DNA of 64,000 nt from Escherichia coli. GTDB lineage: Bacteria; Pseudomonadota; Gammaproteobacteria; Enterobacterales; Enterobacteriaceae. The position numbers and the translations under genes are program-made. Of this stretch, positions 11,059 to 38,550 are shown one piece after another (the first letter of the stretch is position 1; every line of letters starts with the position of its first letter). Under the pieces are notes generated by a model that worked only from the letters and a program-made list of their open reading frames with translations, ran no database searches and was not told the origin of the DNA. Location of the stretch: NCBI RefSeq assembly GCF_011045215.1, contig NZ_CP049201.1; one strand, written 5' to 3'.

Positions 11059-11134
11059 AATAAACCTCTTTTTCAGGCGAGAGCGCACCTCGCGTTAGCG
11101 CCTGATGGAGTGGGTTGAAATTAATTATTATTAA

Positions 11135-11416: not shown

Positions 11417-11886
11417 ATTTCACCTCGTTCTTTCATTTTGTTTAAGATTACTGTGTGTATTTCTGTTGTTTCCATCGCAAGCAGGGCTTGCATAAAGGGC
11501 GTATCCTGAATCATTTCCATAATCCAGCCCAGGGCATTTAATTGTTTATTACTTTCGCTTAAGGCGAGCAAAAAAATCACCCTGACAGGTACGGGGTCAG
11601 GATCGCCGCCCATATCGGCAAACTCTACCGATTCCGGCAGGATGCCGACGGCAATTGCATTGTGCCTGACATGTTTATGGTCCGTGTGCGGAATAGCGAC
11701 GCACGGTGGTTCGGTAGGCAGCCCCGTTGGGTACGTCGCCTCACGTTTCAGTACGTGATCGGCAAAATCAGGGACGACCAGCTCGGCGGCAACCAACGGT
11801 TGCGCTAACTGACGGATGATCTGTTCAACGCTTAACCCTGCCGGAAGTCGTTGAATATAATTTTCCTGAAAATGTATGCCTTGCAT
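11413..11886 (-). CDS. PTS EIIA component (type 2; mannitol/fructose/galactitol family)
   Basis: 157-aa ORF; active-site His context (AIPHTD); ATGA overlap with the EIIB gene. Confidence 0.8.
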   Translation of the reverse strand: MQGIHFQENYIQRLPAGLSVEQIIRQLAQPLVAAELVVPDFADHVLKREATYPTGLPTEPPCVAIPHTDHKHVRHNAIAVGILPESVEFADMGGDPDPVPVRVIFLLALSESNKQLNALGWIMEMIQDTPFMQALLAMETTEIHTVILNKMKERGEI

Positions 11887-11910
11887 TTTATTCCTCTTAA
11901 AAAAGTGTAC

Positions 11911-12666
11911 TTAACTCACTTCCCGCCGTTGCAGTACGGTGCCAAGATAATATTTATTTCCTTTTAACCAGACGTTGCCAAACTCAATGGGTAATCCTCG
12001 GGAGAAAAAGACTAACTGCTCCAGATGCAAAACGGGTGCGTCTTCACTGATATCTAAAAAATGACCACGTTCATTACCAATTAATCGCGCGGCATAGCGA
12101 CTTTCCGAGTAACGAATTTTTCTTTGCGACAAACTTTCTATTGTTGGAAATAAATTGTGTTGATTAAAATCGATTTCCGCAATACCAGGGCATAGCTCAA
12201 TATTGATACGGTTCTCTATCAGCATCGCTTTTTCATCACCAATTGAGCGTAAGCGTTCAAGGTAAAGAATATCCTGACCGGGCGTTATTCTTAATTTCTC
12301 TGCCACATAACGATTAGCCGGTTCAATCCGTGACGTAATAACTTCAGTGGTAAAATGTATTTTCTGGCTTTCCAGCGATTCCGCGAATGACAATAATCCT
12401 TCACCTAACGGATATGCCACGTTCTCTTTTTTGACAAATGTTCCCTTACCCTGGACCTGTATTAACACGCCTTCTTTTACCAGTTGGGCGACCGCTTTTT
12501 TAACGGTTCCCCGACTCACTTCCAGCATATCCATAATCTGGTATTCCGAAGGAATGCGATCGTCTTCCACCAGATCTCCGGTATAAATACTTTCTCTTAT
12601 CCACTCCACCACTTGTTGATAGAGCGGTATTTGTGACGACTTACTTAATGATTTCATGGCGCGCAC
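11911..12666 (-). CDS. GntR/HutC-family transcriptional regulator (winged-helix plus UTRA effector domain)
   Basis: 251-aa ORF; N-terminal GntR-type HTH (SEYQIMDMLEVSRGTVKKAVAQLVKEGVL) and UTRA-like C-terminal domain; first gene of the PTS operon. Confidence 0.8.
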   Translation of the reverse strand: MRAMKSLSKSSQIPLYQQVVEWIRESIYTGDLVEDDRIPSEYQIMDMLEVSRGTVKKAVAQLVKEGVLIQVQGKGTFVKKENVAYPLGEGLLSFAESLESQKIHFTTEVITSRIEPANRYVAEKLRITPGQDILYLERLRSIGDEKAMLIENRINIELCPGIAEIDFNQHNLFPTIESLSQRKIRYSESRYAARLIGNERGHFLDISEDAPVLHLEQLVFFSRGLPIEFGNVWLKGNKYYLGTVLQRREVS

Positions 12667-18288: not shown

Positions 18289-18876
18289 TCAGTTAACTGA
18301 ATCGATCCATTGCACACTGTCGGCGGTGAGCGTAAAGGGAGTAGGGGTGCAGATCGCCAGGCTTAAATTTTCTAGCTGACAATGGCTGACTGACAGCGAG
18401 GAGTGATAGGTGCTGTCTACGCTGACGATTTGCCAGGCGCTGCCACCACGCTGTTTAACGATGGCTTCTTTGCGCGTCCAGATGCGCCAGAACATTTCCA
18501 GTTGCTGATCAGGATGCACGGCGTCCATCTCAGCGTGTTCCCCGAGGCTGAATACGGCGTTCGCCAGCCAGCGCCAGTTGGCGCGCGGGCGAATCACTTC
18601 GATATCGCAGCCGACTTCGCCTTCATCACTCAACAGCAGAGCGATATCGTCACCGCTATGGCTTAAGTTGAACCATAGCGGCGTTTCCGGCGCGAATGCA
18701 GGTTTGCCTTGTTCGCCATAGATGATCTCCGGTAGCGGGGAAAGCGTGTGCGAAAGCAATGCACGCCCCGCCAGCCAGCGTTCGCGTCGTGGACCTTGCG
18801 GTGCTTGCTCGCGTAAACCCGGTGGCAGTGGAGCTGCGCTTAAGGTCGAAACTTTCCCCAGAACTATCCGATACAT
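18289..18876 (-). CDS. acpT: 4'-phosphopantetheinyl transferase AcpT
   Basis: 195-aa product starting MYRIVLGK (the ORF-track extension to 18996 is probably spurious). Its start codon lies 1 bp after the stop of the last ketosynthase gene of the upstream cluster. Confidence 0.85.
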   Translation of the reverse strand: MYRIVLGKVSTLSAAPLPPGLREQAPQGPRRERWLAGRALLSHTLSPLPEIIYGEQGKPAFAPETPLWFNLSHSGDDIALLLSDEGEVGCDIEVIRPRANWRWLANAVFSLGEHAEMDAVHPDQQLEMFWRIWTRKEAIVKQRGGSAWQIVSVDSTYHSSLSVSHCQLENLSLAICTPTPFTLTADSVQWIDSVN

Positions 18877-18877
18877 A

Positions 18878-20107
18878 TCAGGGCCAACGTTTAATGATGA
18901 TGGATGTATTAATGCCGCCAAAGGCAAAGTTGTTACTCTGCAAAAACTCACAATCAACCTTGCGGGCTTCATGCATGATGTAATCCAGCGCGCCACAATT
19001 CGGGTCTGGTTTATTCAGGTTTAGCGTAGGCGCAAACCAACCTTCGCGCATCATTTGCAGACTCATCCAGGCTTCGAGCGCGCCACAGGCACCAAGCGTA
19101 TGACCAAAATAACTTTTCAGCGAGGAGAGCGGCACATTATCACCGTAAATGGTTGCTGTCGCCAGACTTTCTGCCATATCACCGCGATCGGTCGCCGTAC
19201 CATGCGCTGAAATATAGCCGATATCTTGTGCGCTTAACCCGGCGATTTTCAGCGATTGCTCCATACAATACTGCATGGTTTCGCTCTGCGGCTGGGTAAT
19301 ATGTGCCGCGTCGCAGTTAGTCGCAAAGCCGACGATTTCACCGTAAATGGTCGCGCCGCGCGCTTTGGCGTGCTCCAGTTCTTCGAGAATGAGCGTACCT
19401 GCGCCTTCACCAATCACCAGCCCGTCGCGGTTTTCATCGAACGGTGAAGGTGTGGTTTTCGGCGCATCATTGTGCTGGCTGGTGGCGAAAAGCGTATCAA
19501 ATACCGCTGCTTCTGAAGGACATAACTCTTCGGCACCACCAGCAACCATCACCGTTTGATAACCGTGGCGAATGGCTTCCCACGCATAACCGATTGCCTG
19601 GCTGCCGGAAGTACAGGCGCTGGAGGTTGGGATCACCCGCCCGCGCAGGCCGAAAAAGAGGCCAGTATTAACGGCGGTGGTGTGCGGCATCATCTGCACA
19701 TAGGTGGTGCCAGTGATGTTATTGGTGTGCTTTTCCGTCAGCATGGTGGCGAACTCGCTTACCGGGCCGGTACTGCCGGTCGATGAACCGTACGCAATGC
19801 CCGTTTCGCCGCTGGTTAATATCGGATCGCCAATCAACCCTGCCTGCTCTAACGCCAGCTCGCTGGCACGGGTCGACATTTGCGACACGCGGCCCATCGC
19901 ACGGATACGCTTGCGGGTGTAGTGCTCCGGTAGCGTGAAATCATCAACAGGCGCGCCAAGCAGGGTGTGCAGCCCATCGTAGACCTGCCACTCCGGCATT
20001 TTGCGCACCGCATTTTCATATGCCAGTAAGCGTGCAGAAACGTCCTGCCAGTTTTCACCAAAGGCAGTCACGCCGCCCATTCCTGTAATCACTACGCGAC
20101 GTGTCAT
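18878..20107 (-). CDS. Beta-ketoacyl-ACP synthase (KAS I/II type), last biosynthetic gene of the APE-type cluster
   Basis: 409 aa; Cys-His-His triad contexts (SSACTSG, HGTAT, GHTLGA). By cluster order this would be apeR in the Xenorhabdus nomenclature as I recall it (unverified). Confidence 0.85.
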   Translation of the reverse strand: MTRRVVITGMGGVTAFGENWQDVSARLLAYENAVRKMPEWQVYDGLHTLLGAPVDDFTLPEHYTRKRIRAMGRVSQMSTRASELALEQAGLIGDPILTSGETGIAYGSSTGSTGPVSEFATMLTEKHTNNITGTTYVQMMPHTTAVNTGLFFGLRGRVIPTSSACTSGSQAIGYAWEAIRHGYQTVMVAGGAEELCPSEAAVFDTLFATSQHNDAPKTTPSPFDENRDGLVIGEGAGTLILEELEHAKARGATIYGEIVGFATNCDAAHITQPQSETMQYCMEQSLKIAGLSAQDIGYISAHGTATDRGDMAESLATATIYGDNVPLSSLKSYFGHTLGACGALEAWMSLQMMREGWFAPTLNLNKPDPNCGALDYIMHEARKVDCEFLQSNNFAFGGINTSIIIKRWP

Positions 20108-20835
20108 AACATCCCTCCGTTGATGGAAATAACCTGGCGGGTGACGTAACCCGCAATATCAGACATTAAATAACTGGCAAGCCCGGCAACTTCTTCCGCC
20201 TGGCCCATACGTTTCATGGGGATCATCGACATTGCCTCTTTCAGAGCGCTCTCTTCCATTTCGATCATCCCGGTATCAATAAGCCCCGGCGCGATGCAGT
20301 TGACGGTGATTTTGCGCTTCGCGAGTTCGATAGCCAGCGCTTTTGTTGCGCCGATAATTCCGGCTTTGGCAGCGCTGTAATTCACCTGGCCGCGATTGCC
20401 CATTACGCCGGAAACCGAGGATAGCGTGATGATGCGCCCACCCTGGCGTGCGCCGATCATCGGCATAATGCACGGCTGAATGACGTTGTAGAAACTGTCG
20501 AGGTTGGTGTGGATCACCGCATCCCAGTCGTCATCGCTTAAAGCCGGAAAAGCGGCATCGCGGGCGATCCCGGCGTTACTGACCACGCCGTACCAGGCAC
20601 CGTGTTGCGCGATCTCATGCTCCAGCACTTCCCGACACTGTTCGCGGTTTGCGACGTCGAAACTGAGCAAACGCCCGTTACCCCCATTGGCGACAATGGC
20701 ATTCAGCGTTTCCTGAGCGCCTGTGGCGTCACGGTGATAGTGAACGCCAATGTTAAAGCCGTCTGCCGCCAGTTGGCAGGCGATGGCGCGACCAATGCCT
20801 TTGCTGGCACCAGTAACCAGAACTGAACGACTCAT
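20104..20835 (-). CDS. 3-oxoacyl-ACP reductase (SDR, FabG-like)
   Basis: 243 aa; TGASKGIGRAIA cofactor motif, NAG, YSAAK catalytic motif. Would be apeQ by order (unverified). Confidence 0.85.
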   Translation of the reverse strand: MSRSVLVTGASKGIGRAIACQLAADGFNIGVHYHRDATGAQETLNAIVANGGNGRLLSFDVANREQCREVLEHEIAQHGAWYGVVSNAGIARDAAFPALSDDDWDAVIHTNLDSFYNVIQPCIMPMIGARQGGRIITLSSVSGVMGNRGQVNYSAAKAGIIGATKALAIELAKRKITVNCIAPGLIDTGMIEMEESALKEAMSMIPMKRMGQAEEVAGLASYLMSDIAGYVTRQVISINGGML

Positions 20836-21299
20836 CAGGACGCTCCTTGTTGAAACAGGGTGGTAAGTTCTTCCGCGGTCGGCTGGAAGGTGTTAATGCG
20901 GCCCGTCGCCTCGCCGTCGTTGATGCTGCACTCAAAACTGCCGAAGCGATCGTCCTGCATCAGCAGTTTGACGGTAATGGTCAGCGTCTGGCCTGCGGGC
21001 AGAATGCCAGTGGTGCAAAGCAATTCACGCGCGCCCAGTATCATCCCTAACTCAATACTGTTTTTGCCTTGCTGGTGGCGATGCCAGCCAGACCAGACGC
21101 CGACGGTTTGCGCCATCAGTTCAAGGGCAAACCAGCCAGGGAGATTGCCGTCCGGGTCGAGAAACGGTGCCAGTACGCCACTGGGCGAAACCGTCACGCG
21201 GCACACCGCGCTGTCATCGCTGACGCTCACCACGTCTTCCAGCAGTAACATGGGCGCGTCGTGGGGCAGATAAGCGCCGGGGGATAAATAGTGGCTCAC
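20835..21299 (-). CDS. Hot-dog fold 3-hydroxyacyl-ACP dehydratase (FabA/FabZ-like)
   Basis: 154 aa, hot-dog-fold size and composition; sits between KR and KS genes. Would be apeP by order (unverified). Confidence 0.7.
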   Translation of the reverse strand: MSHYLSPGAYLPHDAPMLLLEDVVSVSDDSAVCRVTVSPSGVLAPFLDPDGNLPGWFALELMAQTVGVWSGWHRHQQGKNSIELGMILGARELLCTTGILPAGQTLTITVKLLMQDDRFGSFECSINDGEATGRINTFQPTAEELTTLFQQGAS

Positions 21300-22474
21300 G
21301 AAACCCTCCCGAGCAGAATGCTGGCGTTATTGCCGCCAAAGGCGAAGGAATTGGACAGGATCACCGGACGTGCCAGCGGCTGTGGTTTTTCGATAATGCC
21401 GCACGGTGGCAGCGTGGGATCGCACGGCGACAGGCTGAAGTCCTGAGCGGGCAGCGGTAAATCACGCTGTAAAATCAACATGCTGATTGCCGCCTCGGTA
21501 ATGCCCGCCGCGCCCAGCGTGTGGCCGGTCAAATGTTTGGTGGAACTGCACGGTACGCGTTCGCCAAACAGGGCGTTAACCACCATTGATTCAATCTGAT
21601 CGTTGAGTTGTGTGGCGGTGCCGTGCAGGTTGATATAGCCGACGTCATCTGGCGTAAGCTGTGCATCGTTCAGCGCCTGATTAATAGCGCGGATCGCTCC
21701 TTCGCCCTGCGGATGCGGGGCTGAAATATGGTAAGCGTCGCTCGATTCACCAACGCCCAGCAACGCGATGGGCTGCGGTTCCCGGGTCAGCAGCATTAGC
21801 CCCGCCCCTTCACCAATGGTGATACCTGCGCGGTCACGACCAAACGGCTGACATAAGGTTGGCGACAGCGATTCGAGGCTGTGAAAACCGTTAATCGGCA
21901 TCCGGCTCAGGGTGTCTGCGCCACCCACAATGGCGGCATCGACCAGCCCCGCTTCGATAAGCCTGCGCCCGCTGATTATCGCTCTGGCGCTGGAAGAGCA
22001 GGCGGTTGAAAGGGTATAGGCCGGGCCGTCGAGCGCCAGCCAGTGGCTGAGAAAACGCGACGGATCGCCGAGTTCCTGTTGCGCGTAGTGCCATGTGGTG
22101 CTCGGCTGCCCGTGGGTGCGCAGGTTAACGTGCGTGTCGCCTTCATGCAGGCCGGAGGTGCTGGTGCCAAGTACAATCGCGATGCGCTCGCGACCATATT
22201 TCGCGATAGCGTCATCAACCTGCGGCTGGATCTGCGCCAGCGCCGCCAGCAGGATCTGATTGTTGCGCGAGCGGTGCGCAGCGAATTTTTCCGGGATAAG
22301 CGGAAGCTCGCCATCCACGCCAGCCAGGACCGCCTGCGGATGCCCCTGCAACCAGCCTGCGCGCGGGCGCATGCCGGGAGCAACACCGCGAGTCAGGTTG
22401 GTTGCGATTTCGTCAAGGTTATTTCCCAGGGCGTTGATCATGCCGACGGCGGAAATATAAATCATATCAGTCAC
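21296..22474 (-). CDS. Beta-ketoacyl synthase (elongating KS)
   Basis: 392 aa; active-site contexts STACSSS, HGTATQ, GHTLGA. Would be apeO by order (unverified). Confidence 0.85.
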   Translation of the reverse strand: MTDMIYISAVGMINALGNNLDEIATNLTRGVAPGMRPRAGWLQGHPQAVLAGVDGELPLIPEKFAAHRSRNNQILLAALAQIQPQVDDAIAKYGRERIAIVLGTSTSGLHEGDTHVNLRTHGQPSTTWHYAQQELGDPSRFLSHWLALDGPAYTLSTACSSSARAIISGRRLIEAGLVDAAIVGGADTLSRMPINGFHSLESLSPTLCQPFGRDRAGITIGEGAGLMLLTREPQPIALLGVGESSDAYHISAPHPQGEGAIRAINQALNDAQLTPDDVGYINLHGTATQLNDQIESMVVNALFGERVPCSSTKHLTGHTLGAAGITEAAISMLILQRDLPLPAQDFSLSPCDPTLPPCGIIEKPQPLARPVILSNSFAFGGNNASILLGRVS

Positions 22475-23051
22475 CTAAGTATTGAATGGTGATGTGGTAT
22501 TTAAAGACATGCTGCTCAATGCTGATTGGCACGCGTTTTCCCTGGCGATTCAGATAGGTGATTTCCGTGACCAGTTTGCCGCTGGCGTTACGCAGCTCGC
22601 GTTTGTCACCGTTGTCGCGAAGTGTCCATCCTGCGGGAAGTTGCGGTTGCCAGGCGCTAATCGGCCAGTGGCTGAGCATCACGTCAGCCAGTACCTGACT
22701 TGCGGGCGGTAACTGTGGGACGACGATGGATTGCTCGGCGCGTAGCCCTTGCGCATCGTAGGTCACCAGAAACAGGCGAATGCCGACCGACGACAGCCCG
22801 GCAAGGGTGATTTTCTGATCGTCGGCGTTAAGCATTACTAGCAGCGACTGGGTGTTGCCGTTGAAGCTGCCGGTTAACAGTTGCTGGGAATTGACGGCGG
22901 GTGAAATCCCCGGTGCCGGCAGCGTGATGCGCGTGCCAGGTTGCAGCCACGCCTGCGGGCGGCCTTCCTGTTCCGGTTGCGAGTGGCTACAGCCGGTGAG
23001 GATAAGCGTAGCGGTCAGGGCGAACGCTCGCCAGAAGGTAGGTTTGATCAT
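22467..23051 (-). CDS. Lipoprotein (DUF3261-like)
   Basis: 194 aa; signal peptide with lipobox (LTGC). Confidence 0.7.
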   Translation of the reverse strand: MIKPTFWRAFALTATLILTGCSHSQPEQEGRPQAWLQPGTRITLPAPGISPAVNSQQLLTGSFNGNTQSLLVMLNADDQKITLAGLSSVGIRLFLVTYDAQGLRAEQSIVVPQLPPASQVLADVMLSHWPISAWQPQLPAGWTLRDNGDKRELRNASGKLVTEITYLNRQGKRVPISIEQHVFKYHITIQYLGD

Positions 23052-25366
23052 TTTTTTGTTCTCTTTTTATCGGGCATAGCCAGCGGCGAAAGCAGGAAGG
23101 CGGTGAAAATACCGCTCACCAGCACAATGCCAAAACTGCTGATGGCCTGGGTGGCGCTGAATACCAGCATTCCCAGCGTCAGCAAGGTGGTGAGCATTGC
23201 CAGTGTGATCGCCAGTAGCGAAGTTAACGGCGTACCGCGCGGATTACTGAAAAACAACGTGTAGTTGATACCGATGCCAAGTACCAGCACCAGCGCCAGC
23301 AGCGAAAAGAGATTCACCGCCTGCCCGCTCATCGCCAGCACCGCCAGACCACAGCCCAGCGAAAGCACCGAAGGCACCAGGCTGATAAGCCCTTTGCGCC
23401 AGCCGAGACGGGCCACTGCGCCGCAGGCAATCACTGCCAGCGCCACCAGCAACAAGCCGGTTAAGACGTAGCGGTAAAGTGCGAACAATTCATCAAAGGT
23501 GCTTTTGCGATCAACCCAGGCAATGCCGCAAGGGTAATATGTGGCGATTTCCTGCATCAACGCGCTACTTTTAACCCCTTCAACCGGCACCAGTACGCCG
23601 CTTTCGCCATTTTCCAGCGTCAGCCACAGCAGACGCCAGCCTTCACTGGCGGGGCTTGCCAGCCATTCATCAACGTTCACTGGCATGGCGTTGAGATCTG
23701 GTTTCACCGCCGTCAGCCCGGCGTTTTGCAGTGCTTTTGTTACCGTCGGGGCCGCCGTTTTCAGCAGGTCTAAATCTTCCTCCTGTCGCGCCAGAGAGTT
23801 CAGCGGAATAGTGCGGTAATTGCTGATAAGACCGTCTTTTTTCGCCTTCTCCAGCGAGGAGGTAAATGTCTCCAGCCGTCCCAATGTTTGCTGTGGGGAG
23901 TCGCCGTAAACCACAAACCATTTTTGATCGACGCTTTGCCCGGTCAGGGCGGTAATGGCTTTCTCCTGGGTCAGAATATGCTGCGGTAGCGCCTGTAACT
24001 GCGAGATATCGTCATCGACGCGCAGCATTGACATCCCCGCCAGCGAAAACAGCGCCAGCGCGACGGGCAGACCCAGCGACAGTTTTTTATTACGCCGCCA
24101 CGCTGCCAGCCAGCGTAGCATCAGCGCCATCGCCGGAACCGGACGCACCGGCAGGCCACGGCACAGCCACGGATGCCAGAACAGGACGGTCAGACAAGAG
24201 GCGCTCAACCCGACGGCGGCAAAAATCGCCATCTGGCGAATGCCTGGGAAGGGGGCGAGCATCATAATCAGATACGCCGCCACGGTGGTGAGCAGCGCCA
24301 GTAGCAAGGCATTGCGTACTTTCGCCAGGCTTTGCCACGGCGAAACGTCGTTGCCGTGCACCATCCGCTCGGTGAGATAATAGAGCGTGTAGTCAGCGGA
24401 AATGCCGATAACGCTCATGCTCATTACCAGCGTCATCAGGTGTAATTCACCGAAAATCAATAAAGTGGCGACCGTTCCCGCCAGCGCGCCGATGCCGATG
24501 GAAATCACGCAAAGCAGCAACGGGCGCAAAGAGCGGAACACCGCCACAATCAGCAATATCACCCCCAGCAGCGTTGCCACGCCCAGGGTTGAGATATCCT
24601 GCTTCGCCTGTTGGCTGGCGTAATCGCTGTAAAACACCGTGCCGCGCGAAAGCAGCTGCGCCTGCGGGTAACGCGTTTTCAGATCCTTTTCCAGCGTATT
24701 CAGGGTCGTGATGAGCTGGTGGGTTTGCTGCATATCAAACGACGATCCCGCCAGTTCACCGTGCAGCAGATACCAGTAGTTGCCCTGGGGATCCTGCGTC
24801 ACCAGCCAGCCGTCCATCAGCCGCAAACGCTGGCCGTTTTTCGCCATCGCCAGCTGCGAGCCGCGCATTAACATCAGCGGATCGTTTTGCAGCTCCTTGC
24901 CGCTTACCCCGGAGAACGCAGAATAAAGCTGGGAGAGGATCCACTGCGCCTGCGCTTCGCCGCCGTTTTGCAGGCGCGCGCGGGTGTCGGGGTCAATCAG
25001 GCCGTTGCGGTGCTGCCAGAAAAACGCTCCCCACGCTTGCTGGCTGGCGGCATCCATTGGCCCTTTAACGTCGCCGAGCGCAGCGGATTTTTGCAGCAGC
25101 GTCAGCCACTCCTGAGCGACCAAAGGATTAGCCTCTTTACCGGGGCTGACCAGCCACACCAGTTGGCGGTCAAGACGCTGCATAAAGCCGTCATTCAGCG
25201 CCGGAGGAATATCGCCCATCGTCTGTTTGGGTAACATAGCCAGCACGCTACTGTTCAGCCGTGATTGCGGCAGCAGGATCAGCAACGCCGCCGCCATGAC
25301 CAGGCAGACTAGCCCCCATAACAGCGCGGGGCGTTTACTGGGCGGCAAAACGTTGGCGTTCGTCAT
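23048..25366 (-). CDS. MMPL/RND-superfamily membrane exporter
   Basis: 772 aa; two blocks of transmembrane helices each following an extracytoplasmic domain, typical of MMPL-type lipid exporters. Confidence 0.75.
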   Translation of the reverse strand: MTNANVLPPSKRPALLWGLVCLVMAAALLILLPQSRLNSSVLAMLPKQTMGDIPPALNDGFMQRLDRQLVWLVSPGKEANPLVAQEWLTLLQKSAALGDVKGPMDAASQQAWGAFFWQHRNGLIDPDTRARLQNGGEAQAQWILSQLYSAFSGVSGKELQNDPLMLMRGSQLAMAKNGQRLRLMDGWLVTQDPQGNYWYLLHGELAGSSFDMQQTHQLITTLNTLEKDLKTRYPQAQLLSRGTVFYSDYASQQAKQDISTLGVATLLGVILLIVAVFRSLRPLLLCVISIGIGALAGTVATLLIFGELHLMTLVMSMSVIGISADYTLYYLTERMVHGNDVSPWQSLAKVRNALLLALLTTVAAYLIMMLAPFPGIRQMAIFAAVGLSASCLTVLFWHPWLCRGLPVRPVPAMALMLRWLAAWRRNKKLSLGLPVALALFSLAGMSMLRVDDDISQLQALPQHILTQEKAITALTGQSVDQKWFVVYGDSPQQTLGRLETFTSSLEKAKKDGLISNYRTIPLNSLARQEEDLDLLKTAAPTVTKALQNAGLTAVKPDLNAMPVNVDEWLASPASEGWRLLWLTLENGESGVLVPVEGVKSSALMQEIATYYPCGIAWVDRKSTFDELFALYRYVLTGLLLVALAVIACGAVARLGWRKGLISLVPSVLSLGCGLAVLAMSGQAVNLFSLLALVLVLGIGINYTLFFSNPRGTPLTSLLAITLAMLTTLLTLGMLVFSATQAISSFGIVLVSGIFTAFLLSPLAMPDKKRTKK

Positions 25367-25940
25367 CGGTCAGTTGCGCTGGCGTCAGTTGATGTTGGGT
25401 AAGAGCAATATCGGTGCGATCGCCCTGTTTATCATTAAGTTGAATGCTCTCCAGATAGGTTTTCCCGGCGAGATCGATGGTGTTGAAAATTTTATCCAGC
25501 GGCGTGGTGGTCGGCGTCAGGCGCAGCGTCCAGCGGCCTTCGCCTTTGTCAGCAAATTCGACGCGGAAGTTTTGTTCCAGCACTTTGCGATCGGCCTGGA
25601 ACAGCGCGCGCAGCAGGTGGTTAAACTGGAACATCTGCGGGTTGTTTTCTGCCGTGATGATTTGCGGCGGCTGACCGTTGATCACCTGCACCATGCGTTT
25701 ATCGTCCAGTAATAGCTGCATGGGGAATGGTGAGGTTTGATCCCACAACAGCCCCTGGTCGCGGGCGATCAACATCTGGCCCTGAGATCGCAGCGGCTGC
25801 GGCAGATCTTTAATCGTCCGGGTTTGATCGAAATGGGCGCGGATCACCGGTTGTTCGGTAAAGCGTTGCTGAAGATCGTCCAGGGTCAGGGCGCTCACAA
25901 ACGGGCTAATCAGCAGCGCCAGCAGCGGTAAAAATTTCAT
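25335..25940 (-). CDS. LolA-like outer-membrane lipoprotein carrier
   Basis: 201 aa with signal peptide; LolA-family length and composition; 32-bp overlap with the MMPL gene. Confidence 0.65.
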   Translation of the reverse strand: MKFLPLLALLISPFVSALTLDDLQQRFTEQPVIRAHFDQTRTIKDLPQPLRSQGQMLIARDQGLLWDQTSPFPMQLLLDDKRMVQVINGQPPQIITAENNPQMFQFNHLLRALFQADRKVLEQNFRVEFADKGEGRWTLRLTPTTTPLDKIFNTIDLAGKTYLESIQLNDKQGDRTDIALTQHQLTPAQLTDDERQRFAAQ

Positions 25941-26359
25941 GGTTTGACTCCCATGCGTTCAAACAGAATATCGGGGCTGACAAAGCACAGTTCGCGACTT
26001 TGCTCGTCGACCGCGACCTGAATGGTGTATCCGGTGGTGGCGCGTTTGCCCGTTTCGGCATCGAAAATCTGATAGCCAATCCGCAGACGGTTTTCGAACT
26101 CTTCGATATGCGCACGCACGCGGATGCGTTGCTCAAAGGTGAGGGCGTGGCGATATTTCACCCGCGCATCGACCACTGGCCACAAATAACCGGACTCTTT
26201 CATCTGCCGATAGCCGTAATTGAACTGGTTGAGCAGCGCCTCGCGAGCCACTTCAAAGTAGCGAAAATAGTTACCGTGCCAGGCCACGCCCATCATATCG
26301 ACGTCGTGAAAGGGAATGGTCAGCTCGACTTCAGCGGTAAATCGGGGATCGTTAAGCAC
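25937..26359 (-). CDS. Acyl-CoA/acyl-ACP thioesterase (4HBT / YbgC-like hot-dog)
   Basis: 140 aa; 4HBT-type N-terminal motif (IPFHDVDMMGVAWHGNYFRYFE). Confidence 0.8.
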   Translation of the reverse strand: MLNDPRFTAEVELTIPFHDVDMMGVAWHGNYFRYFEVAREALLNQFNYGYRQMKESGYLWPVVDARVKYRHALTFEQRIRVRAHIEEFENRLRIGYQIFDAETGKRATTGYTIQVAVDEQSRELCFVSPDILFERMGVKP

Positions 26360-26362
26360 CCT

Positions 26363-28039
26363 TTACTCCTTGTCCTGAATTTCCGGCAGTTGCCAGAAAT
26401 CGAAAAAATTAAACCAGTCGAGGGGCGACTGGAGCGCGTAATGTTCCAGACGCGCGGCGTAGTGGTCGATAGCGTTTTGCAGCGCCTGCTGGCGTTCGCC
26501 ACGCGGCAGTTGCAGCGGGTCGGCAAAGCTTTCGCAGTGAATATGCAGCTTGCCGTGCTGGCGTAGGGCGAAAATCAGATTCACCGGGCAGCGCAAAATA
26601 GACGCGAGAATAAACGGTCCCTGTGGGAAAGGCGCAGGCTGGCCCATAAACGAACTCCAGCAGACGCGCCAGTCGCCGCCGCGTTGCGGGGTGACGGCGA
26701 TACGGTCACCGACAATCGCCACCCATTCCCCGTTATCCAGCTTCTCTTTCAGCAGGATGGCGGTTTCTGGGCCGATATCTGTTACCGGCATCAGGTTAAT
26801 GCCTGCCTGAGGAGCCATCTCCTGCATTATCTGTTTAAAGCGTTGGGCGTTTTCGCTAAACACCAGCGCGTTAATGGTTTTGTAGCCCTGAATTTTTGCC
26901 AGCGCCCGGCACACTTCCACATCGCCAAGATGCGAGGCCAGCAGCAATTTGCCGCGCGGATCGCGGACGTCAAGCGCCGCTTCTGCGCCTGGCGCAAACA
27001 GCACATCACGCCCCAGTTGTAGCTCGCCGCGCCAGCTGGCGATTTTGTCGAGCATGGCATTACCGAAACGTAGAAAGTGCTGATAGCTGTTGAGTTTTGC
27101 CGCCTGTGGTTGATGCTGTCGTACACGGGCGAGCCAGTCTTGCGACGCTTTGCGCGCACGAGAAGCAGTGAGCCAGTAGACGCCCACCACCGGGTAAAGC
27201 AGCGCGCTAAACGCCGTTCTTCCCAGCAGACGCCAGACCAGCAGCATCAGGCGCATTCCCCATAACCCTTTCACCTCACTCTGCCGCGCCCAGTGGCTGG
27301 AAGAACGGCGCATCAGCAGTGAAGGAATACGCGGCAACATGCCGAAAAATAGACGCGTGTGCATGAGCGAGATGCGGACGTTATCTTTCAGGGCATCAAA
27401 ATGCGAAAGCCCGTCCAGCGGATAGGTGACGCGGGTCGGCACGAAATAACTGGTGTTTCCCTGCCAGTAGAGGCGCACCATCACTTCGGTGTCGAAATCC
27501 ATCCGCTTGCCGATGGTGGCGTGTTTTGCCAGTTGCAGCGTTGGCGCAACCGGATAAACGCGAAAGCCGCACATGCTGTCTTTCAGTTGCAGGGAGAGCG
27601 TTTCGATCCATACCCAGACGTGAGTGACCCAGCGCCCATACAGCCGTGAGCGGGGGATGGAGTCATCGTAAATTGGCTGGCCGGAGATCAACGCCGCAGG
27701 GTGTTGTTCAGCGAGTGCCAGCAGTTTGGGGATATCTTCAATCGCATGTTGACCATCAGCATCTACCTGCACCGCATGGCTGAACCCCGCGTCTGCCGCT
27801 GCCTGTAAGCCGCGCATCACCGCCGCGCCTTTACCTGCGTTTTCTGCCAGGCGGATTAAGGTCACGCCAGGCTGTTCGCTAATCAGATTATCCAGTTGCT
27901 GTTGCGTGGCGGCATCGCTGCCGTCGTCCACCACAATACAAGGCAGATTAAATGGCTTAAGACGCGCCAGCACGCCCGGCATCATCGCGCCGTGGTTGTA
28001 GCAGGGGATCAACACGCAGGGAGAAAAGTTTACCGACAT
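26363..28039 (-). CDS. Two-domain protein: N-terminal family 2 glycosyltransferase fused to a C-terminal acyltransferase-like domain
   Basis: 558 aa; GT2 motifs (VVDDGSD, DxD-type VQVDADGQH) in the first ~230 aa, followed by membrane-associated and acyltransferase-like segments. Confidence 0.7.
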   Translation of the reverse strand: MSVNFSPCVLIPCYNHGAMMPGVLARLKPFNLPCIVVDDGSDAATQQQLDNLISEQPGVTLIRLAENAGKGAAVMRGLQAAADAGFSHAVQVDADGQHAIEDIPKLLALAEQHPAALISGQPIYDDSIPRSRLYGRWVTHVWVWIETLSLQLKDSMCGFRVYPVAPTLQLAKHATIGKRMDFDTEVMVRLYWQGNTSYFVPTRVTYPLDGLSHFDALKDNVRISLMHTRLFFGMLPRIPSLLMRRSSSHWARQSEVKGLWGMRLMLLVWRLLGRTAFSALLYPVVGVYWLTASRARKASQDWLARVRQHQPQAAKLNSYQHFLRFGNAMLDKIASWRGELQLGRDVLFAPGAEAALDVRDPRGKLLLASHLGDVEVCRALAKIQGYKTINALVFSENAQRFKQIMQEMAPQAGINLMPVTDIGPETAILLKEKLDNGEWVAIVGDRIAVTPQRGGDWRVCWSSFMGQPAPFPQGPFILASILRCPVNLIFALRQHGKLHIHCESFADPLQLPRGERQQALQNAIDHYAARLEHYALQSPLDWFNFFDFWQLPEIQDKE

Positions 28040-28413
28040 AGGCGGATCTTCCCGCTACTGGCGGTGTGGCGGGCGTCACCGTCGTGACGCTGATAGCTAA
28101 AGCTCAGAATCTGGCGATCTTCCTGCCAGTTAAGCGTGAGCGTGACGCGGTTTTCCGGCAGCAACGGAGACTGGAATTTTATGTTCTGAATGGAGTGAAA
28201 ACGCCAGCCAGGCGCGAGCAGGGCAAGCGCGTAACTCATGGCCCAGTCGATTTGCGCAACTCCTGGGAGTAATGGTTGCACGGCAAAATGGCCGCGAAAC
28301 CAGAACAGATCTGCCCTGAGATGCAAAACAATCTCAAGGTGATTCGCTTGTGCCTGATGGCGCTCGATTTCATGGGGCTTCATGAAATAACTCCTGTAAT
28401 TGCGCATAGACAC
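28030..28413 (-). CDS. FabZ/FabA-like hot-dog dehydratase
   Basis: 127 aa; FabZ-type motif (FRGHFAVQPLLPGV). The start may lie at an internal Met (MKPHE...). Confidence 0.75.
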   Translation of the reverse strand: MSMRNYRSYFMKPHEIERHQAQANHLEIVLHLRADLFWFRGHFAVQPLLPGVAQIDWAMSYALALLAPGWRFHSIQNIKFQSPLLPENRVTLTLNWQEDRQILSFSYQRHDGDARHTASSGKIRLCR

Positions 28414-29731
28414 GCTTGTTCATACTGTTTACTGGCATTTCATCAATAACGCGCCAGTAACGCGGAATGGCAACCGGCTCCAGCATCGGGCGCAGTAATC
28501 GCCGCCAGGCTATTTCCTGGCTATGCCCGCCGCCGTGCTGCCATTGCAGGCGAGCTTCGTCATCCAGCACCAGCAAAACGCCAATGCACTGACGCCCGCC
28601 GCGTGTAACAGGAACTGCCGCCGCCTCGCGAATACCGTCCAGTGCCAGCAGACGTTGTTCCACTTCCTGGAGTGAAATGCGTTTTTCTTCAATTTTAACG
28701 ATGCGTCCGCGACGCCCCATCAGATGGAACTGGCCGTCTTCGCTAAACTGTAAGATATCGTCGAGTAACAGGCCGTTATCTTCCGCCATCAGCGGTGAAA
28801 AGAGACGAAAAGAATCACCTTCGGCCTGGAACTGCATACCTGGGAGGGGTAGCCAGCGGCGTTGCTCTTGTTCGCGGTAGCGCCAGGCGATGACGCCGGT
28901 TTCCGTGCTGCCGTAGATTTCATCAGGCCAGACGCGCAGCCAGCTTGCGGTGTGTTGTACATCCTGCCACGGCAGCTCACCGCCAGCAGAGAGAAGCACC
29001 TGAACGGGTGGCGGAGAAAGCTGGGTATCCAGGCGCTTCAAAAATGCCGGGCTGCTGATGAAGATATAGCGATGCTGATGACTCAACGCGGCAAACTGTT
29101 CGACATACCAGAGCATGGCGGCGTGCAGCGGTAATCCCAACGCCATGGGCAGGAAAACGCGAAAAGTCAGGCCGTACAAATGCTGCGGCAATACGGAACC
29201 GACGACACGACAACCCGCCAGACGTGCGCCTAATCGTTCAGCCAGCAGTTCTGCTTCACGATCCAGCAAATGAACAGGTTTAATCACCCGTTTCGGCTGT
29301 CCCGTGGAACCGGAGGTAAACAGCTCGATAAAAGCCTCTGGCGCTATAGCGGAAAAGGTGAAGGATTGTGTCGCGATTTGTGGAGAACTTGCTACCAACA
29401 GCAATGAACCTTGCCAGTTAAGTTCGCTGTCGCTAAGCACACCATCAAAAAGTTCACGTTGCTCGTTAAGCTGGATAACACGGTTATGCCCCGGAAGCAC
29501 CGGCGTTTTTCCGGCGTGTAGCGTGGCGAGCAGGGCAACGATAAACAGATAGCTGTTCTCAAAGCACAGCGCCCAGCGTTCACCTGGCTGTTGCTGCAAG
29601 CGGCAGATAAGTTGCGCGACATCGTGACGCAAATCGCCCAGCGTCCAGGTGCTTTCGTCCAGCCACGCAATGGGCGTGTCATCAGGGCGTGGCGCAGTCA
29701 GCCAGCGTGCAAGCGGTAAGGTCTGCTTCAT
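28370..29731 (-). CDS. AMP-dependent synthetase/ligase (adenylating enzyme; candidate aryl starter-unit activator)
   Basis: AMP-binding motif TSGSTGQPK. Start placed at the Met that forms an ATGA overlap with the upstream gene's stop (plus strand 29728-29731 reads tcat); the ORF track extends to 29770. Confidence 0.8.
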   Translation of the reverse strand: MKQTLPLARWLTAPRPDDTPIAWLDESTWTLGDLRHDVAQLICRLQQQPGERWALCFENSYLFIVALLATLHAGKTPVLPGHNRVIQLNEQRELFDGVLSDSELNWQGSLLLVASSPQIATQSFTFSAIAPEAFIELFTSGSTGQPKRVIKPVHLLDREAELLAERLGARLAGCRVVGSVLPQHLYGLTFRVFLPMALGLPLHAAMLWYVEQFAALSHQHRYIFISSPAFLKRLDTQLSPPPVQVLLSAGGELPWQDVQHTASWLRVWPDEIYGSTETGVIAWRYREQEQRRWLPLPGMQFQAEGDSFRLFSPLMAEDNGLLLDDILQFSEDGQFHLMGRRGRIVKIEEKRISLQEVEQRLLALDGIREAAAVPVTRGGRQCIGVLLVLDDEARLQWQHGGGHSQEIAWRRLLRPMLEPVAIPRYWRVIDEMPVNSMNKRVYAQLQELFHEAP

Positions 29732-30309
29732 GCGCGATCTCTTTTCATCACCTGACGGCGCACCAGCCATTCACCAGCCATTAATGTTCCCATCAACAAA
29801 TAAGCAATCATGCCGTTCCAGGCGGTCCATAACGACATATCGGCATAAAGCGCGGTAAAGAGGGCAATTCCACCGTTGATGATGAAAAAGCCGCACCAGA
29901 TTTGCGTGACGCGGCGGGTATAGCGCATGCCCTTTTCCGGCAGATCTGGCTCCTGCAAACGCGCCAGCCGCTCAACTATCGGCATTGCCGACCACAGCGA
30001 ACCGCCAAAAACCGCCAGCATGACCGCGTTAACCACTACCGGGTAAAACAGCAGTAGCTGGTGTGTTTTCAACAGAACGCTGGCGACACATAATGCGATG
30101 CCCACGACAGCGACGATTTGTGTGACGACCTGGAGCGGCCCCGCCTGGCGACGGGTCTGGCGCAGGCGCAACAAAAGCAGCAACGCTATTAGCGGCAACA
30201 GCCAGTGCAGGCCGTTATGCGCTAAGCCAAACCAAATCACAAACGGCCAGGCGAGCAGCAATAATCCAGTCAGCAGCTTAATCATCGGTAGCGAGCGAAT
30301 GCCCGACAT
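29728..30309 (-). CDS. Small polytopic membrane protein of unknown function
   Basis: 193 aa, about 5 predicted hydrophobic helices; embedded in the operon with coupled stop/start. Confidence 0.6.
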   Translation of the reverse strand: MSGIRSLPMIKLLTGLLLLAWPFVIWFGLAHNGLHWLLPLIALLLLLRLRQTRRQAGPLQVVTQIVAVVGIALCVASVLLKTHQLLLFYPVVVNAVMLAVFGGSLWSAMPIVERLARLQEPDLPEKGMRYTRRVTQIWCGFFIINGGIALFTALYADMSLWTAWNGMIAYLLMGTLMAGEWLVRRQVMKRDRA

Positions 30310-30313
30310 CAGA

Positions 30314-30565
30314 TCAGGCTTCTTGTAGCAGGCGTTCTACAGCCTCGACGACATCCTGGACTGTACGCACTGCTTTAAACTCTTCCGGCTTGATTTTCTT
30401 ACCGGTTTTCTTTTGCAGGTGCACAATCATGTCAACGGCGTCGATGCTGTCCAGTTCCAGATCTTCGTACAGGCGCGCTTCAGGTTTGATGTCCTGCGGA
30501 TCGATTTCAAACAGCTTAACCAGCAGGGCTGAGACTTCCTGATAGACGGTTTGTTGTTCTGTCAT
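30314..30565 (-). CDS. Acyl carrier protein
   Basis: 83 aa; phosphopantetheine attachment motif (LELDSIDAVD). Confidence 0.85.
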   Translation of the reverse strand: MTEQQTVYQEVSALLVKLFEIDPQDIKPEARLYEDLELDSIDAVDMIVHLQKKTGKKIKPEEFKAVRTVQDVVEAVERLLQEA

Positions 30566-30576
30566 GATGGCTTTCC

Positions 30577-30834
30577 TCAGGCACGTTGCGCAGCAATGAA
30601 AGAGGCCAGAGTGGCGACGGAGAAAAAGTGCTGACGCATCTCTTCGCTTTCCGCAGAGAGCACGATGCCGTACTCATTTTTTACTGCCAGTCCCAGTTCC
30701 AGGGCATCGATAGAGTCCAGCCCTAAACCGTCGCCAAACAGCGGCGCGTCGGTATCGATATCATCAGGCGTCAACTCGTCCAGATTGAGGGTGCTGATGA
30801 TGAGGTTTTTAATTTCCAGATAAAGCGCTTGCAT
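30577..30834 (-). CDS. Acyl carrier protein (second, divergent copy)
   Basis: 85 aa; attachment motif (LGLDSIDALE). Confidence 0.85.
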   Translation of the reverse strand: MQALYLEIKNLIISTLNLDELTPDDIDTDAPLFGDGLGLDSIDALELGLAVKNEYGIVLSAESEEMRQHFFSVATLASFIAAQRA

Positions 30835-31630
30835 TATTTATTCCTGAGAGAGGTAAACAACCTTGTTGTAATTGAAGCAAAAGATGCCGGTTTAACTGCC
30901 TTGCTGCCAGCGCCGGTTCTTGTGAAGTTGCATCGTAAAATTTATTGATTTCAACCCGACCATGGACTGCAACCGTAAAAAACGGCCGGTCAGGTGGAAC
31001 GTCATACCATTTACTTTGTTTATCCAGCAGATGCTCGCTACAGCCGATCGTCACGATGCGTAAATCGCTGGCACAGCGCACGGCAATATTCGCCGCCCCG
31101 CGCTGCAGCGTCATTTTTTCACCGGGCTTCGTTCGCGTGCCTTCGGGGAAAATCAGGATAGTGTCACCCTGTGCCAGTCGCTGTTGGCAGCGGGGTAACA
31201 GGGTTTCAGCTTCGCTGTTGATTAAATAATCTGCCGCCCGCACGACGCCGCCAAGAAAAGGATTTTTTAACAGCGCGCTTTTCACCAGGCAGTCAGTTTC
31301 TGGCATGACTGACGCCAGCAGCACGTAATCGATCAGCGTGGGATGATTGGCTACGACGAGGCAACCGCGTTCCTGACGTAAAATTTCAGCGCCATCAATA
31401 CGATAATCCAGCACGCCAAGCCCTTTCGCGACAGTTAAAAACAGGCGAAAACTGGCGGCAATGCTGCGACGCGCCAAACGACGGCGGCGGGAAGTATCCC
31501 ACACCAAAACTAACAATATGTTAAACCACACGACAGAAAGCAGCAGGCCGCCGAGACCAAACAGGGCAAAACATAACCCGGTCATGACCAGTCGCCAGGT
31601 CCACTCCAGACGTGACATCAGCTTACTCAT
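30809..31630 (-). CDS. Lysophospholipid acyltransferase (PlsC-like)
   Basis: HX4D acyltransferase motif (NHPTLID). Start placed at the Met giving an ATGA overlap with the upstream gene (plus strand 31627-31630 reads tcat); the ORF track extends to 31648. Confidence 0.8.
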   Translation of the reverse strand: MSKLMSRLEWTWRLVMTGLCFALFGLGGLLLSVVWFNILLVLVWDTSRRRRLARRSIAASFRLFLTVAKGLGVLDYRIDGAEILRQERGCLVVANHPTLIDYVLLASVMPETDCLVKSALLKNPFLGGVVRAADYLINSEAETLLPRCQQRLAQGDTILIFPEGTRTKPGEKMTLQRGAANIAVRCASDLRIVTIGCSEHLLDKQSKWYDVPPDRPFFTVAVHGRVEINKFYDATSQEPALAARQLNRHLLLQLQQGCLPLSGINNASALSGN

Positions 31631-32352
31631 CTGTGGCTCCAGCGCCATTGCACGCGCTCGCCAGGCAGTGAAAATGTGTCTACATTTTGTAAATAGTGCT
31701 GTAAAAACAACATGCTTTGCGGCAGTGTTGTTTCATTGCCCGCAATGGCTGACTGCGTTTCACATTGCCAGTCATCGCCAGCTTCAATCACCAGCGCGAC
31801 GGCGTACGGCCAGGTCGGCATTTCTGCAGGCAGTTGTGGGTGATAAAACTCGGGCAGAAAACCGTCAAAATCGACCATCAGCACGCGCTGGTATCCCGCT
31901 TGTAACAGGCTAAGCACTTCACACAAACCTTGCTGGAAAGTGTCGCGACCAGCAGAAAGCGATGACGAAACGATCGGCTGTTTGGCCGCAATGGTCAGGT
32001 TACCCACGGAAGAGTTGTGTACTGAAAGTGCAAAGTCGGTCGGAGAAAGCGCCTGTTCGGTTGCCAGTGCATGAACAATGCGGTAATTGCGCTCCAGTTC
32101 GCCATGACGACTGGTATACAAAACGGCGTCTGGCTGATGGCGGCGTAGCATTGCCAGACCGCATTCAACAGCCAGTTTGCTGCCTGAACTGAGGCGGCGG
32201 GCGGTCATCATTGGCAGTTCACTTAATTTTGCCAACGGCGCGGCAGGGTCAATCGCCCACGGCTGGCGCGACCATGCTTGCCATTGCTGCGCTTCGCTAA
32301 GTCCAGGCGCCAGTGCCTGCCAGTCGGTAATATTTAATGTAAATTTCATCAA
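31627..32352 (-). CDS. Short ketosynthase-like protein (chain-length-factor-like KS partner)
   Basis: 241 aa with KS-like sequence but much shorter than a full KS and no clear Cys-His-His triad (SVHNSSVG where the active-site Cys block would be). Confidence 0.65.
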   Translation of the reverse strand: MMKFTLNITDWQALAPGLSEAQQWQAWSRQPWAIDPAAPLAKLSELPMMTARRLSSGSKLAVECGLAMLRRHQPDAVLYTSRHGELERNYRIVHALATEQALSPTDFALSVHNSSVGNLTIAAKQPIVSSSLSAGRDTFQQGLCEVLSLLQAGYQRVLMVDFDGFLPEFYHPQLPAEMPTWPYAVALVIEAGDDWQCETQSAIAGNETTLPQSMLFLQHYLQNVDTFSLPGERVQWRWSHR

Positions 32353-32389: not shown

Positions 32390-33457
32390 TTATTTCTTTT
32401 GGCATATCAAAAGTGTATGCCCAACGCCTAAATTATCGTGGCGCTCTGCTACCTGGAATCCTGCTTTATTCAGATAGTCGTAAAATTTCTCTGCACTATA
32501 GAAACGGCTGTTACCGTTTGCCATGCAGGTAAAATAAAGTGAGGACGCGTTCAGGCTAAACGATGCTGCTTCAAACCGCTGCGCATCCCAGAACAACTCC
32601 ATGATGCAAACTTTTGCGCCAGGCTTCATTACGCTGGCAATTTTGCTGAGTATGCTAATTATTTGTTCGGGTGAAAAACAGTCTAAAAATTGGCTCATCC
32701 ACCAGATATCAGCCTCGCCCGGTAATGGGGCATCGCTTAGCATATCCACCGCATGGAAATCTATGCGATCAGAAAAACCTGCATTCGCGATATTTTCTTT
32801 CGCTAGTACGATTTGTTGTGGCAGATCTAATAACGTCACGGCGATGTTTTCATTGTATTTGCAGCAACGCAAAGCCCACTTACCCGTATTGCCGCCTACA
32901 TCGTACAATGTTGTGGGGTTGTTGGCGAATACATAAGGCAGTGCGGCGTTAAATGCGCCATCTGAATAGTAATGATCAAACGCAAACCAGCTTTCACGAG
33001 CGGCGTCTGGTAATTGCGAAAGTGCCGGATATATCGTCGACCAGTCGCCAAATACTTTTAACCCGGAAGGTTTTCCTTCATTGAGTGAATCGGCGAGGAA
33101 GAAGAGCCCCTGGTAACAGACATCCTGGGTGAAATCCATATTCACGCGAGTCATAGTGTCATGCAGGAGGTAATGACCGATTTTCGCCAGGTAATAAATT
33201 CCCTCTTTACAGGTAATAATTCGCCCGCTTAAGCCCATATCTAACAGAACGCTGGCAGCATATTCGTTGATATGGCTATGTTCGGTGATATCAGCCAGCG
33301 TTGCGCCATGTTTGCCTTGCCGATCCAGATATGAAAGTACACCCGCATTACGTAGGCAGAGTGCTGTTTGAAAAAGCATAGGGGCAAAGGCAATGCGTTG
33401 AGCTTCGGTAATCGCATCCAGTGCGCTAAGAGAATCCTGTTCGTACATGTTGGGCAC
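32390..33457 (-). CDS. SAM-dependent O-methyltransferase (class I)
   Basis: 355 aa; SAM-binding motif (LYDVGGNTGKWA) within a C-terminal Rossmann-like domain. Would be apeB by order (unverified). Confidence 0.8.
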   Translation of the reverse strand: MPNMYEQDSLSALDAITEAQRIAFAPMLFQTALCLRNAGVLSYLDRQGKHGATLADITEHSHINEYAASVLLDMGLSGRIITCKEGIYYLAKIGHYLLHDTMTRVNMDFTQDVCYQGLFFLADSLNEGKPSGLKVFGDWSTIYPALSQLPDAARESWFAFDHYYSDGAFNAALPYVFANNPTTLYDVGGNTGKWALRCCKYNENIAVTLLDLPQQIVLAKENIANAGFSDRIDFHAVDMLSDAPLPGEADIWWMSQFLDCFSPEQIISILSKIASVMKPGAKVCIMELFWDAQRFEAASFSLNASSLYFTCMANGNSRFYSAEKFYDYLNKAGFQVAERHDNLGVGHTLLICQKK

Positions 33458-33516: not shown

Positions 33517-33906
33517 TTATAAATCTGCGCCCGCTGACAAATTCAGTTGAATATCTTTGTCGAGATTGCGGACCCAGCGATTGTAGTTTTTATGAATTTG
33601 TCCGCCTGACGCTTGTAGGTTCTGGCTATTTTCATAATTGATATCGTAGCTGGATGCCGTGTAGTTAATGCGTATTTCCGCTGAATGATCGCGTGACTGT
33701 TGACGTGCTTTAATTATGCCTTGTCCGGCTTCGGACATAATCCATTTGCGTTCAACGCCAGCTTTCAGAATCGCTTTTTTCACTTGTTCCTGGGTATGAC
33801 CAGCGCTGACGGTTGAGTGAACCTGATCAATTGGCGCAGTACGCGCGCAACCTGCTAAAGCACCCACAACAGCAATAGCCGCAAACCATTTCATGTAATG
33901 TCTCAT
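33517..33906 (-). CDS. Small lipoprotein of unknown function leading the cluster
   Basis: 129 aa; signal peptide plus lipobox (LAGC); the real start may be the internal Met at MKWFAAI. Confidence 0.6.
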   Translation of the reverse strand: MRHYMKWFAAIAVVGALAGCARTAPIDQVHSTVSAGHTQEQVKKAILKAGVERKWIMSEAGQGIIKARQQSRDHSAEIRINYTASSYDINYENSQNLQASGGQIHKNYNRWVRNLDKDIQLNLSAGADL

Positions 33907-38518: not shown

Positions 38519-38544
38519 CCGATCGCGCTCAATGTTGCGATCGG
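38519..38544. terminator. Palindromic hairpin between convergent tusA and zntA
   Basis: 8-bp inverted repeat CCGATCGC / GCGATCGG with 9-nt loop, followed by TTTG on the plus strand. Confidence 0.45.
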
Positions 38545-38550
38545 TTTGCC

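Follow-up and report, generated by a model that had tools for sequence, protein, structure and literature searches.

The tandem acyl carrier protein genes apeE and apeF of an Escherichia coli aryl polyene cluster and the joint occurrence of apeF with the acyltransferase gene apeD

Two adjacent open reading frames (ORFs) in a stretch of 64,000 nucleotides of the E. coli contig NZ_CP049201.1 (the whole stretch analysed is referred to as the window) are apeE (upstream) and apeF (downstream), the acyl carrier protein (ACP) pair of an aryl polyene (APE) cluster. The probability that this identification is correct together with its functional explanation, in which ApeE is the carrier of the chromophore and ApeF a second carrier, is put at about 0.8. 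The pair has already been named, dissected genetically and solved by NMR, and is a known gene pair of a known cluster. What is new here is the survey of genome loci, which covers the adjacency of the two genes, their separation into clades and the co-occurrence of apeD and apeF. The biochemistry and genetics all come from orthologues (E. coli CFT073 and O157:H7, X. doucetiae and A. baumannii) rather than from the strain of the window.

Both proteins match the phosphopantetheine (PP)-binding family PF00550 (Pfam gathering score 20.8 bits), ApeE with 33.3 bits (E 5.7e-08) and ApeF with 50.4 bits (E 2.6e-13), and each passes a separate NCBIfam model, namely NF006617 for ApeE (90.8 bits, cut-off 70) and NF003757 for ApeF (146 bits, cut-off 65). 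The motif LDSIDA is found in both, with the conserved serine (D-S-[LI]) where helix 2 begins; the attachment serines are S41 of ApeE (codon 30712-30714) and S40 of ApeF (codon 30446-30448). A preliminary description of this DNA had reported adjacent ACPs of 83 and 85 residues with an LDSID-type site, and this holds, with its coordinates exact. The best PDB match of ApeE is the A. baumannii ApeE (9LS6; E 1.6e-25, 58% identity over 81 residues), the next match having an E-value of merely 2e-04. The best match of ApeF is the A. baumannii ApeF (9L1V; E 5.7e-19, 44% identity over 78 residues), followed by a Thermus thermophilus ACP (1.7e-12), AcpM (about 2e-09) and E. coli AcpP (9e-05). The start of apeF lies 11 nt past the stop codon of apeE, with a GAGGA ribosome-binding site spanning that stop, while the start of apeE is overlapped by 26 nt by the 3′ end of apeD, the gene directly upstream. 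A promoter and terminator scan around the ACP genes gave nothing above shuffle expectation, which is consistent with their being internal genes of an operon.

The ACP genes are part of an unbroken, operon-like array on the minus strand, running from 33906 down to 18878 and consisting of 18 intact collinear genes (Table 1). This array is the APE type II polyketide synthase (PKS)-lipid cluster apeA-R of E. coli. The APE core set is complete, with ketosynthases (O and R), chain-length factor (C), ACPs (E and F), dehydratases (I and P), ketoreductase (Q) and ligase (H), and the lipid and export genes D, J, K, L, M and N are also present. The assignment is based on these genes, on ApeI-like and ApeP-like Pfam matches and on synteny with annotated E. 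coli genomes including CFT073. The aryl ligase had been described as adjacent to the ACPs but is only near them, as apeG lies between. Family searches of the cluster found no malonyl transferase of its own.

Table 1 Genes of the aryl polyene cluster in the window and the adjoining acpT gene.
Gene	Position	Strand	Product	Basis
apeA	33517..33906	-	lipoprotein, first gene of the cluster	no match in the family search
apeB	32390..33457	-	SAM-dependent methyltransferase, FlxJ family	NF053543, 474 bits (below the cut-off of 560)
apeC	31627..32352	-	ketosynthase chain-length factor	PF13723, 225 bits; annotation in locus L001
apeD	30809..31648	-	lysophospholipid/1-acylglycerol-3-phosphate acyltransferase family	PF01553, 70.8 bits; RefSeq annotation of the syntenic gene in L001
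apeE	30577..30834	-	85-aa ACP, ApeE type	PF00550, NF006617, 9LS6
apeF	30314..30565	-	83-aa ACP, ApeF type, more fatty-acid-synthase-ACP-like	PF00550, NF003757, 9L1V
apeG	29728..30309	-	membrane protein, between the ACP genes and the ligase gene	COG4648
apeH	28370..29770	-	adenylate-forming aryl-ACP ligase (4-hydroxybenzoate:ACP ligase)	PF00501, 4-coumarate-CoA-ligase-like match; function from the literature
apeI-apeR	18878..28413	-	all ORFs intact	synteny with annotated L001
apeI	within 18878..28413	-	dehydratase	
apeJ	26363..28039	-	glycosyl/acyltransferase	
apeK	within 18878..28413	-	thioesterase	
apeL	within 18878..28413	-	LolA-like	
apeM	within 18878..28413	-	MMPL transporter	
apeN	within 18878..28413	-	DUF3261	
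apeO	within 18878..28413	-	ketosynthase	
apeP	within 18878..28413	-	dehydratase	
apeQ	within 18878..28413	-	ketoreductase (FabG2)	
apeR	within 18878..28413	-	ketosynthase	
acpT	18289..18876	-	4′-phosphopantetheinyl transferase, directly downstream of apeR	NF007676 AcpT equivalog, 396 bits (cut-off 174)

Of 5426 complete E. coli genomes, 824 carry the APE region on their chromosome. In the annotated genomes with which it is collinear, acpT and nikA lie on one side and yhhT on the other, and the island between acpT and yhhT is O-island 138 of O157:H7. The acpT gene is 'orphaned' in K-12, which is without the APE cluster. ApeJ is a single glycosyltransferase-acyltransferase fusion of 558 residues in the window and in other Enterobacterales loci but is split into two adjacent genes in most other taxa (loci L024-L085 compared). 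In other taxa single ORFs of 650-770 residues match both ApeG (COG4648) and ApeH (aryl-ACP ligase) (L049, 10520-12532; L097, 2363-4390; L173, 10090-12051; L177, 11504-13819; L205, 6288-8456), which suggests that the membrane protein ApeG works with the ligase. Elsewhere, compared with E. coli TB06052, the window is shorter by about 415 bp between tusA and zntA (at about 38538-38551), with a small hypothetical gene among the missing sequence, and the alignment to the reference stretch stops at 62963, the end of ggt. By collinearity with L206, the region at about 6370-12660 corresponds to the interval from yhhJ to nikR of that reference, which contains a hicAB toxin-antitoxin pair as well as a PTS/aldolase/FGGY-kinase sugar island including a GntR regulator. 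Searches of the full 64-kb window found no Rfam family at gathering score, no tRNA and no tmRNA.

From their counterparts in CFT073 and O157:H7 the two genes differ only as alleles. Window ApeE and ApeF are identical to those of CFT073 (c1200 and c1199) at 82 of 85 and 80 of 83 residues, respectively (about 96%), and in the one O157:H7 genome compared ApeE is identical and ApeF differs by one residue; in both strains they are the same genes at the same chromosomal position (acpT-yhhT). The A. baumannii proteins are orthologues sharing the S41/S40 attachment site. The window proteins keep the residues highlighted in the NMR study of the latter (PMC12624758), and these vary little or not at all among homologues. 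ApeE has the glycine-rich motif F33-G34-D-G36-L-G38-L-D-S41 together with G48 and F70, as in A. baumannii; the extended α2-α3 loop reads S-A-E where the reference lid has N-A-E, 'LED' is replaced by L-D-E and K67 by R67. In ApeF the shallow-cavity residues A43, F63, K64 and V66 are all present, with V38 replaced by L38. Residues F33, G36, G38, D40, S41, D43, A44, G48 and F70 of ApeE are invariant in all 81 homologues, while in ApeF D39, S40, D42 and A43 are found in 76/76 homologues, F63 in 75/76 and V66 in 74/76, with K64 nearly invariant.

The ApeE and ApeF sequences share 24 of 81 aligned residues (BLASTP; 30% identity, E 2e-09), indicating that they are homologous but old paralogues. A first search for ApeE homologues was filled up by close Enterobacteriaceae relatives (84% identity and above), and diversity was therefore sampled with a search of 50%-identity representatives. 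An alignment of 54 diverse ApeE-family proteins led to 80 genome loci, 79 of them informative, from the Gamma-, Beta- and Alphaproteobacteria, Corallococcus and one Treponema metagenome-assembled genome, and the six-frame ORFs of these loci were searched with the window ApeA-R proteins. The gene order C-D-E-F-G-H recurs among them, and wherever F is present (75 loci) it directly follows E on the same strand, mostly with gaps of 1-40 nt. Mean identity across the 80 loci is 59% within ApeE, 51% within ApeF and 27% between the two, and in a neighbour-joining tree one clean branch parts the E clade from the F clade. The duplication is thus an old one, and both copies have been maintained. A recent duplication is rejected on the pairwise identity and the clean clades, and the statement of the preliminary description that the ACPs differ substantially and are not recent copies is borne out. 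Natural E-F fusions, or read-through gene calls, occur in the 50%-identity representative library, where P0129 (174 aa), P0169 (182 aa) and P0123 (141 aa) combine an ApeE-type domain with a downstream ApeF-type domain in a single chain; P0201 (774 aa) has an ApeE-type domain at its C-terminus.

Published work on orthologues assigns the two ACPs different partners and phenotypes. For the O157:H7 homologues of both, in vitro activation by AcpT is reported (De Lay & Cronan 2006, cited in PMC8253772). In CFT073, deletion of apeE gives unpigmented cells, whereas deletion of apeF leaves partial pigment with accumulation of yellow intermediates; polyene acid is still made in the latter but the final lipid peak is gone (Johnston et al. 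2021, PMC8253772). In the same study the primary APE lipid peak was confined to the wild type and the apeR deletion, and the HPLC profile of the apeF deletion was said to differ from the apeD-deletion profile. The ligase ApeH is shown to load 4-hydroxybenzoate preferentially on ApeE (Lee et al. 2025, PMC12624758, with reference to Grammbitter et al. 2019), and by NMR it perturbs the spectrum of ApeE and not of ApeF; the aryl substrate is held in a surface pocket of ApeE by the glycine-rich motif, G48 and a mobile lid (PMC12624758). The suggestion that the starter ACP is loaded by the ligase is thus upheld for the orthologues, as is a division of labour between the ACPs. Given the loading preference and the deletion phenotypes, neither ACP of these orthologues is dispensable without a change in product, nor are the two loaded identically.

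For ApeF two proposals have been made, both drawing on X. doucetiae (on its reconstituted APE PKS and on the structure of its APE lipid); this organism belongs to a different genus but has the same C-D-E-F-G-H architecture, an order also seen in the Xenorhabdus locus L013. Because of its shallow cavity, its binding of FabD and its capacity to be malonylated, ApeF was named an 'elongating ACP' (PMC12624758). The solved structure of the full APE lipid contains a second, conjugated C26:5 fatty acyl chain at the glycerol sn-2 position, and ApeF was proposed as the site where this chain is made and ApeD as the enzyme that transfers it, the ApeE-bound chromophore being used by ApeJ (Grammbitter et al. 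2020, bioRxiv 10.1101/2020.12.19.423268). A split into starter and elongation ACPs, as in the preliminary description, matches the main published model and is not new, and its second half is contested.

The distribution of apeD and apeF bears on this question. Among the 79 informative genome loci both genes are present in 75 and both absent in four, with no discordant case. The loci without an F-type ACP are those of Halomonas stenophila (L062), Salinicola socius (L082), Andreprevotia lacus (L066) and Oceanobacter kriegii (L063). A profile search of these four with filters off found no orthologous ApeD; L063 has a generic acyltransferase at 41 bits, compared with 376 bits for a true ApeD. The gene order is plain C-E-G in three of the four. 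As D and F flank E, a single deletion cannot take both and spare E, and the four loci fall in three separate places of the ApeE tree and in two bacterial classes.

A less biased sample was obtained by a DNA-pattern scan of metagenome contigs, which yielded 120 contigs, 95 of them informative. Both D and F are present on 29, D only on two, F only on 16 and neither on 48 (naive Fisher p 8e-11, with kinship ignored and the contigs truncated); the co-occurrence counts ignore phylogeny in the genomes and metagenomes alike. An ApeE-type ACP is found without an F-type ACP on 50 of the 95 contigs, these being truncated, and the F-less clusters retain ketosynthase, reductase and dehydratase genes. The only clear cases of ApeD without ApeF are L128 and L142, high-GC contigs with the order C-D-E-G or D-E-G. 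Thirteen of the 16 F-only contigs have the architecture F-J′-K-O-(B)-E-O, in which the gene for the F-type ACP directly precedes one that is homologous only to the acyltransferase half of ApeJ; here the two ACP types are non-adjacent and ApeD is absent. Contigs of this architecture include L090, L105, L112, L144, L146, L155, L163, L169, L176, L187 and L199, among others. The D-only and F-only contigs show that the coupling of D and F is not obligatory; an absolute coupling, hinted at by the genome set, is rejected in favour of a strong tendency.

Similar architectures are known from related systems. The xanthomonadin and flexirubin clusters are related aryl-polyene type II PKSs with ApeE-like ACPs, a single ACP being reported for the former and non-adjacent ACPs for the latter, and the metagenome contigs include arrangements comparable to both.

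Several explanations other than a functional, specialised pair were weighed. That either or both of the ORFs are spurious, or are decaying, non-functional pseudogenes, has practically no probability. No support for it was found, the sole related point being that the neighbouring apeD of O157:H7 JEONG-1266 (L003, 860-1251) has an internal stop and carries a pseudogene annotation; both ACP genes are intact there, as is apeD in the window. It is ruled out by the significant family scores of both ORFs, the ribosome-binding sites and tight coupling of the two genes, the gene order conserved at 75 of the 79 loci, and the pattern of substitutions within E. coli, where pN (0.013-0.016) is far below pS (0.05-0.15) for both genes. 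That ApeE and ApeF are redundant copies raising flux, like the tandem ACP domains of polyunsaturated fatty acid (PUFA) synthases and mupirocin-type PKSs, is very improbable. In its favour, ApeH loads 4-hydroxybenzoate on both in vitro, albeit much less efficiently on ApeF (Grammbitter et al. 2019, as reported in later papers), and the apeF deletion has merely a partial phenotype. The PUFA synthases and trans-AT PKSs likewise use more than one carrier per pathway ('beads on a string'), but these are near-identical, additive domains of one polypeptide, whereas here there are two proteins from separate ORFs with low identity and different partners. The two clean clades are conserved across classes and phyla, the conserved residue sets of ApeE and ApeF differ, apeF fails to rescue an apeE deletion and the NMR perturbation by ApeH is seen in ApeE only, so that redundancy is already largely refuted.

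More serious is the possibility that ApeF is purely a malonyl shuttle loaded by FabD, with the ketosynthases condensing malonyl units onto the chain carried by ApeE. This model, put forward by Lee et al. 2025 and Johnston et al. 2021, corresponds to the elongation ACP of the preliminary description; we consider it plausible but rather doubt it. It is favoured by the binding of FabD to holo-ApeF in ITC and NMR experiments, the preparation of malonyl-ApeF and the shallow cavity (PMC12624758), by the lack of a malonyl transferase in the cluster, by the PDB matches, in which ApeF is the more fatty-acid-synthase-like of the pair, and by the lowered pigmentation of the apeF deletion. Against it, the chain stays on ApeE and polyene acid is made without apeF, and neither a minus-ApeF control nor a comparison of FabD with ApeE was found in the main text of PMC12624758. 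The model also gives no reason why apeF should be gained or lost jointly with an acyltransferase gene, and about half of the sampled ApeE-type clusters are F-less yet keep their ketosynthase, ketoreductase and dehydratase genes. The elongation role therefore stands in part, in that ApeF can bind FabD and be malonylated, and is weakened by these patterns and by the rival lipid-anchor proposal. The co-occurrence and F-less patterns fit a role of ApeF tied to the acyltransferase step and are difficult to reconcile with ApeF as a required malonyl shuttle; the comparative data thus lean towards a link between ApeF and ApeD.

The most likely role of ApeF, to which we would give nearly even odds, is that it works with ApeD, carrying the second conjugated fatty acyl chain for the glycerolipid anchor. 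This role and malonyl shuttling are not mutually exclusive. The stricter form, in which ApeF is not primarily a malonyl shuttle but a dedicated carrier of the lipid-anchor branch that hands a conjugated acyl chain to ApeD, is put forward tentatively. The lipid-anchor idea itself comes from the 2020 preprint, and new support for it comes from the finding that apeD and apeF tend to be present or absent together while apeE is retained.

By analogy with the orthologues, the pathway in the window would begin with conversion of ApeE and ApeF to their holo forms by the neighbouring AcpT. ApeH would adenylate 4-hydroxybenzoate and load it on Ser41 of ApeE, where the chain would remain while ApeO-ApeC or ApeR, ApeQ and ApeI-ApeP extend it to the polyene, and the finished polyene would then pass from ApeE to the lipid anchor. 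In the orthologues ApeE is indispensable and interacts with ApeO-ApeC, and the same is predicted here; its role as carrier of the chromophore is supported by its invariant diagnostic residues, the preference of ApeH and the unpigmented apeE deletion. ApeF would be a specialised second carrier, dispensable for polyene acid but needed for the finished APE lipid; this auxiliary role is based on the intermediates without a lipid peak in the apeF deletion and on the half of the metagenome contigs that are F-less.

APE clusters have been described as among the most widespread families of bacterial biosynthetic gene clusters; those of uropathogenic E. coli confer protection from oxidative stress and favour the formation of biofilms. 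The use of two different free-standing carriers by a single set of PKS enzymes poses a genuine mechanistic problem. If the lipid-anchor role of ApeF is correct, the tandem ACPs would keep apart two products of a shared type II PKS machinery, the chromophore being built on ApeE and the anchor chain on ApeF. The co-occurrence of apeD and apeF is a modest comparative argument for this hypothesis and provides a testable lead on the cargo of ApeF.
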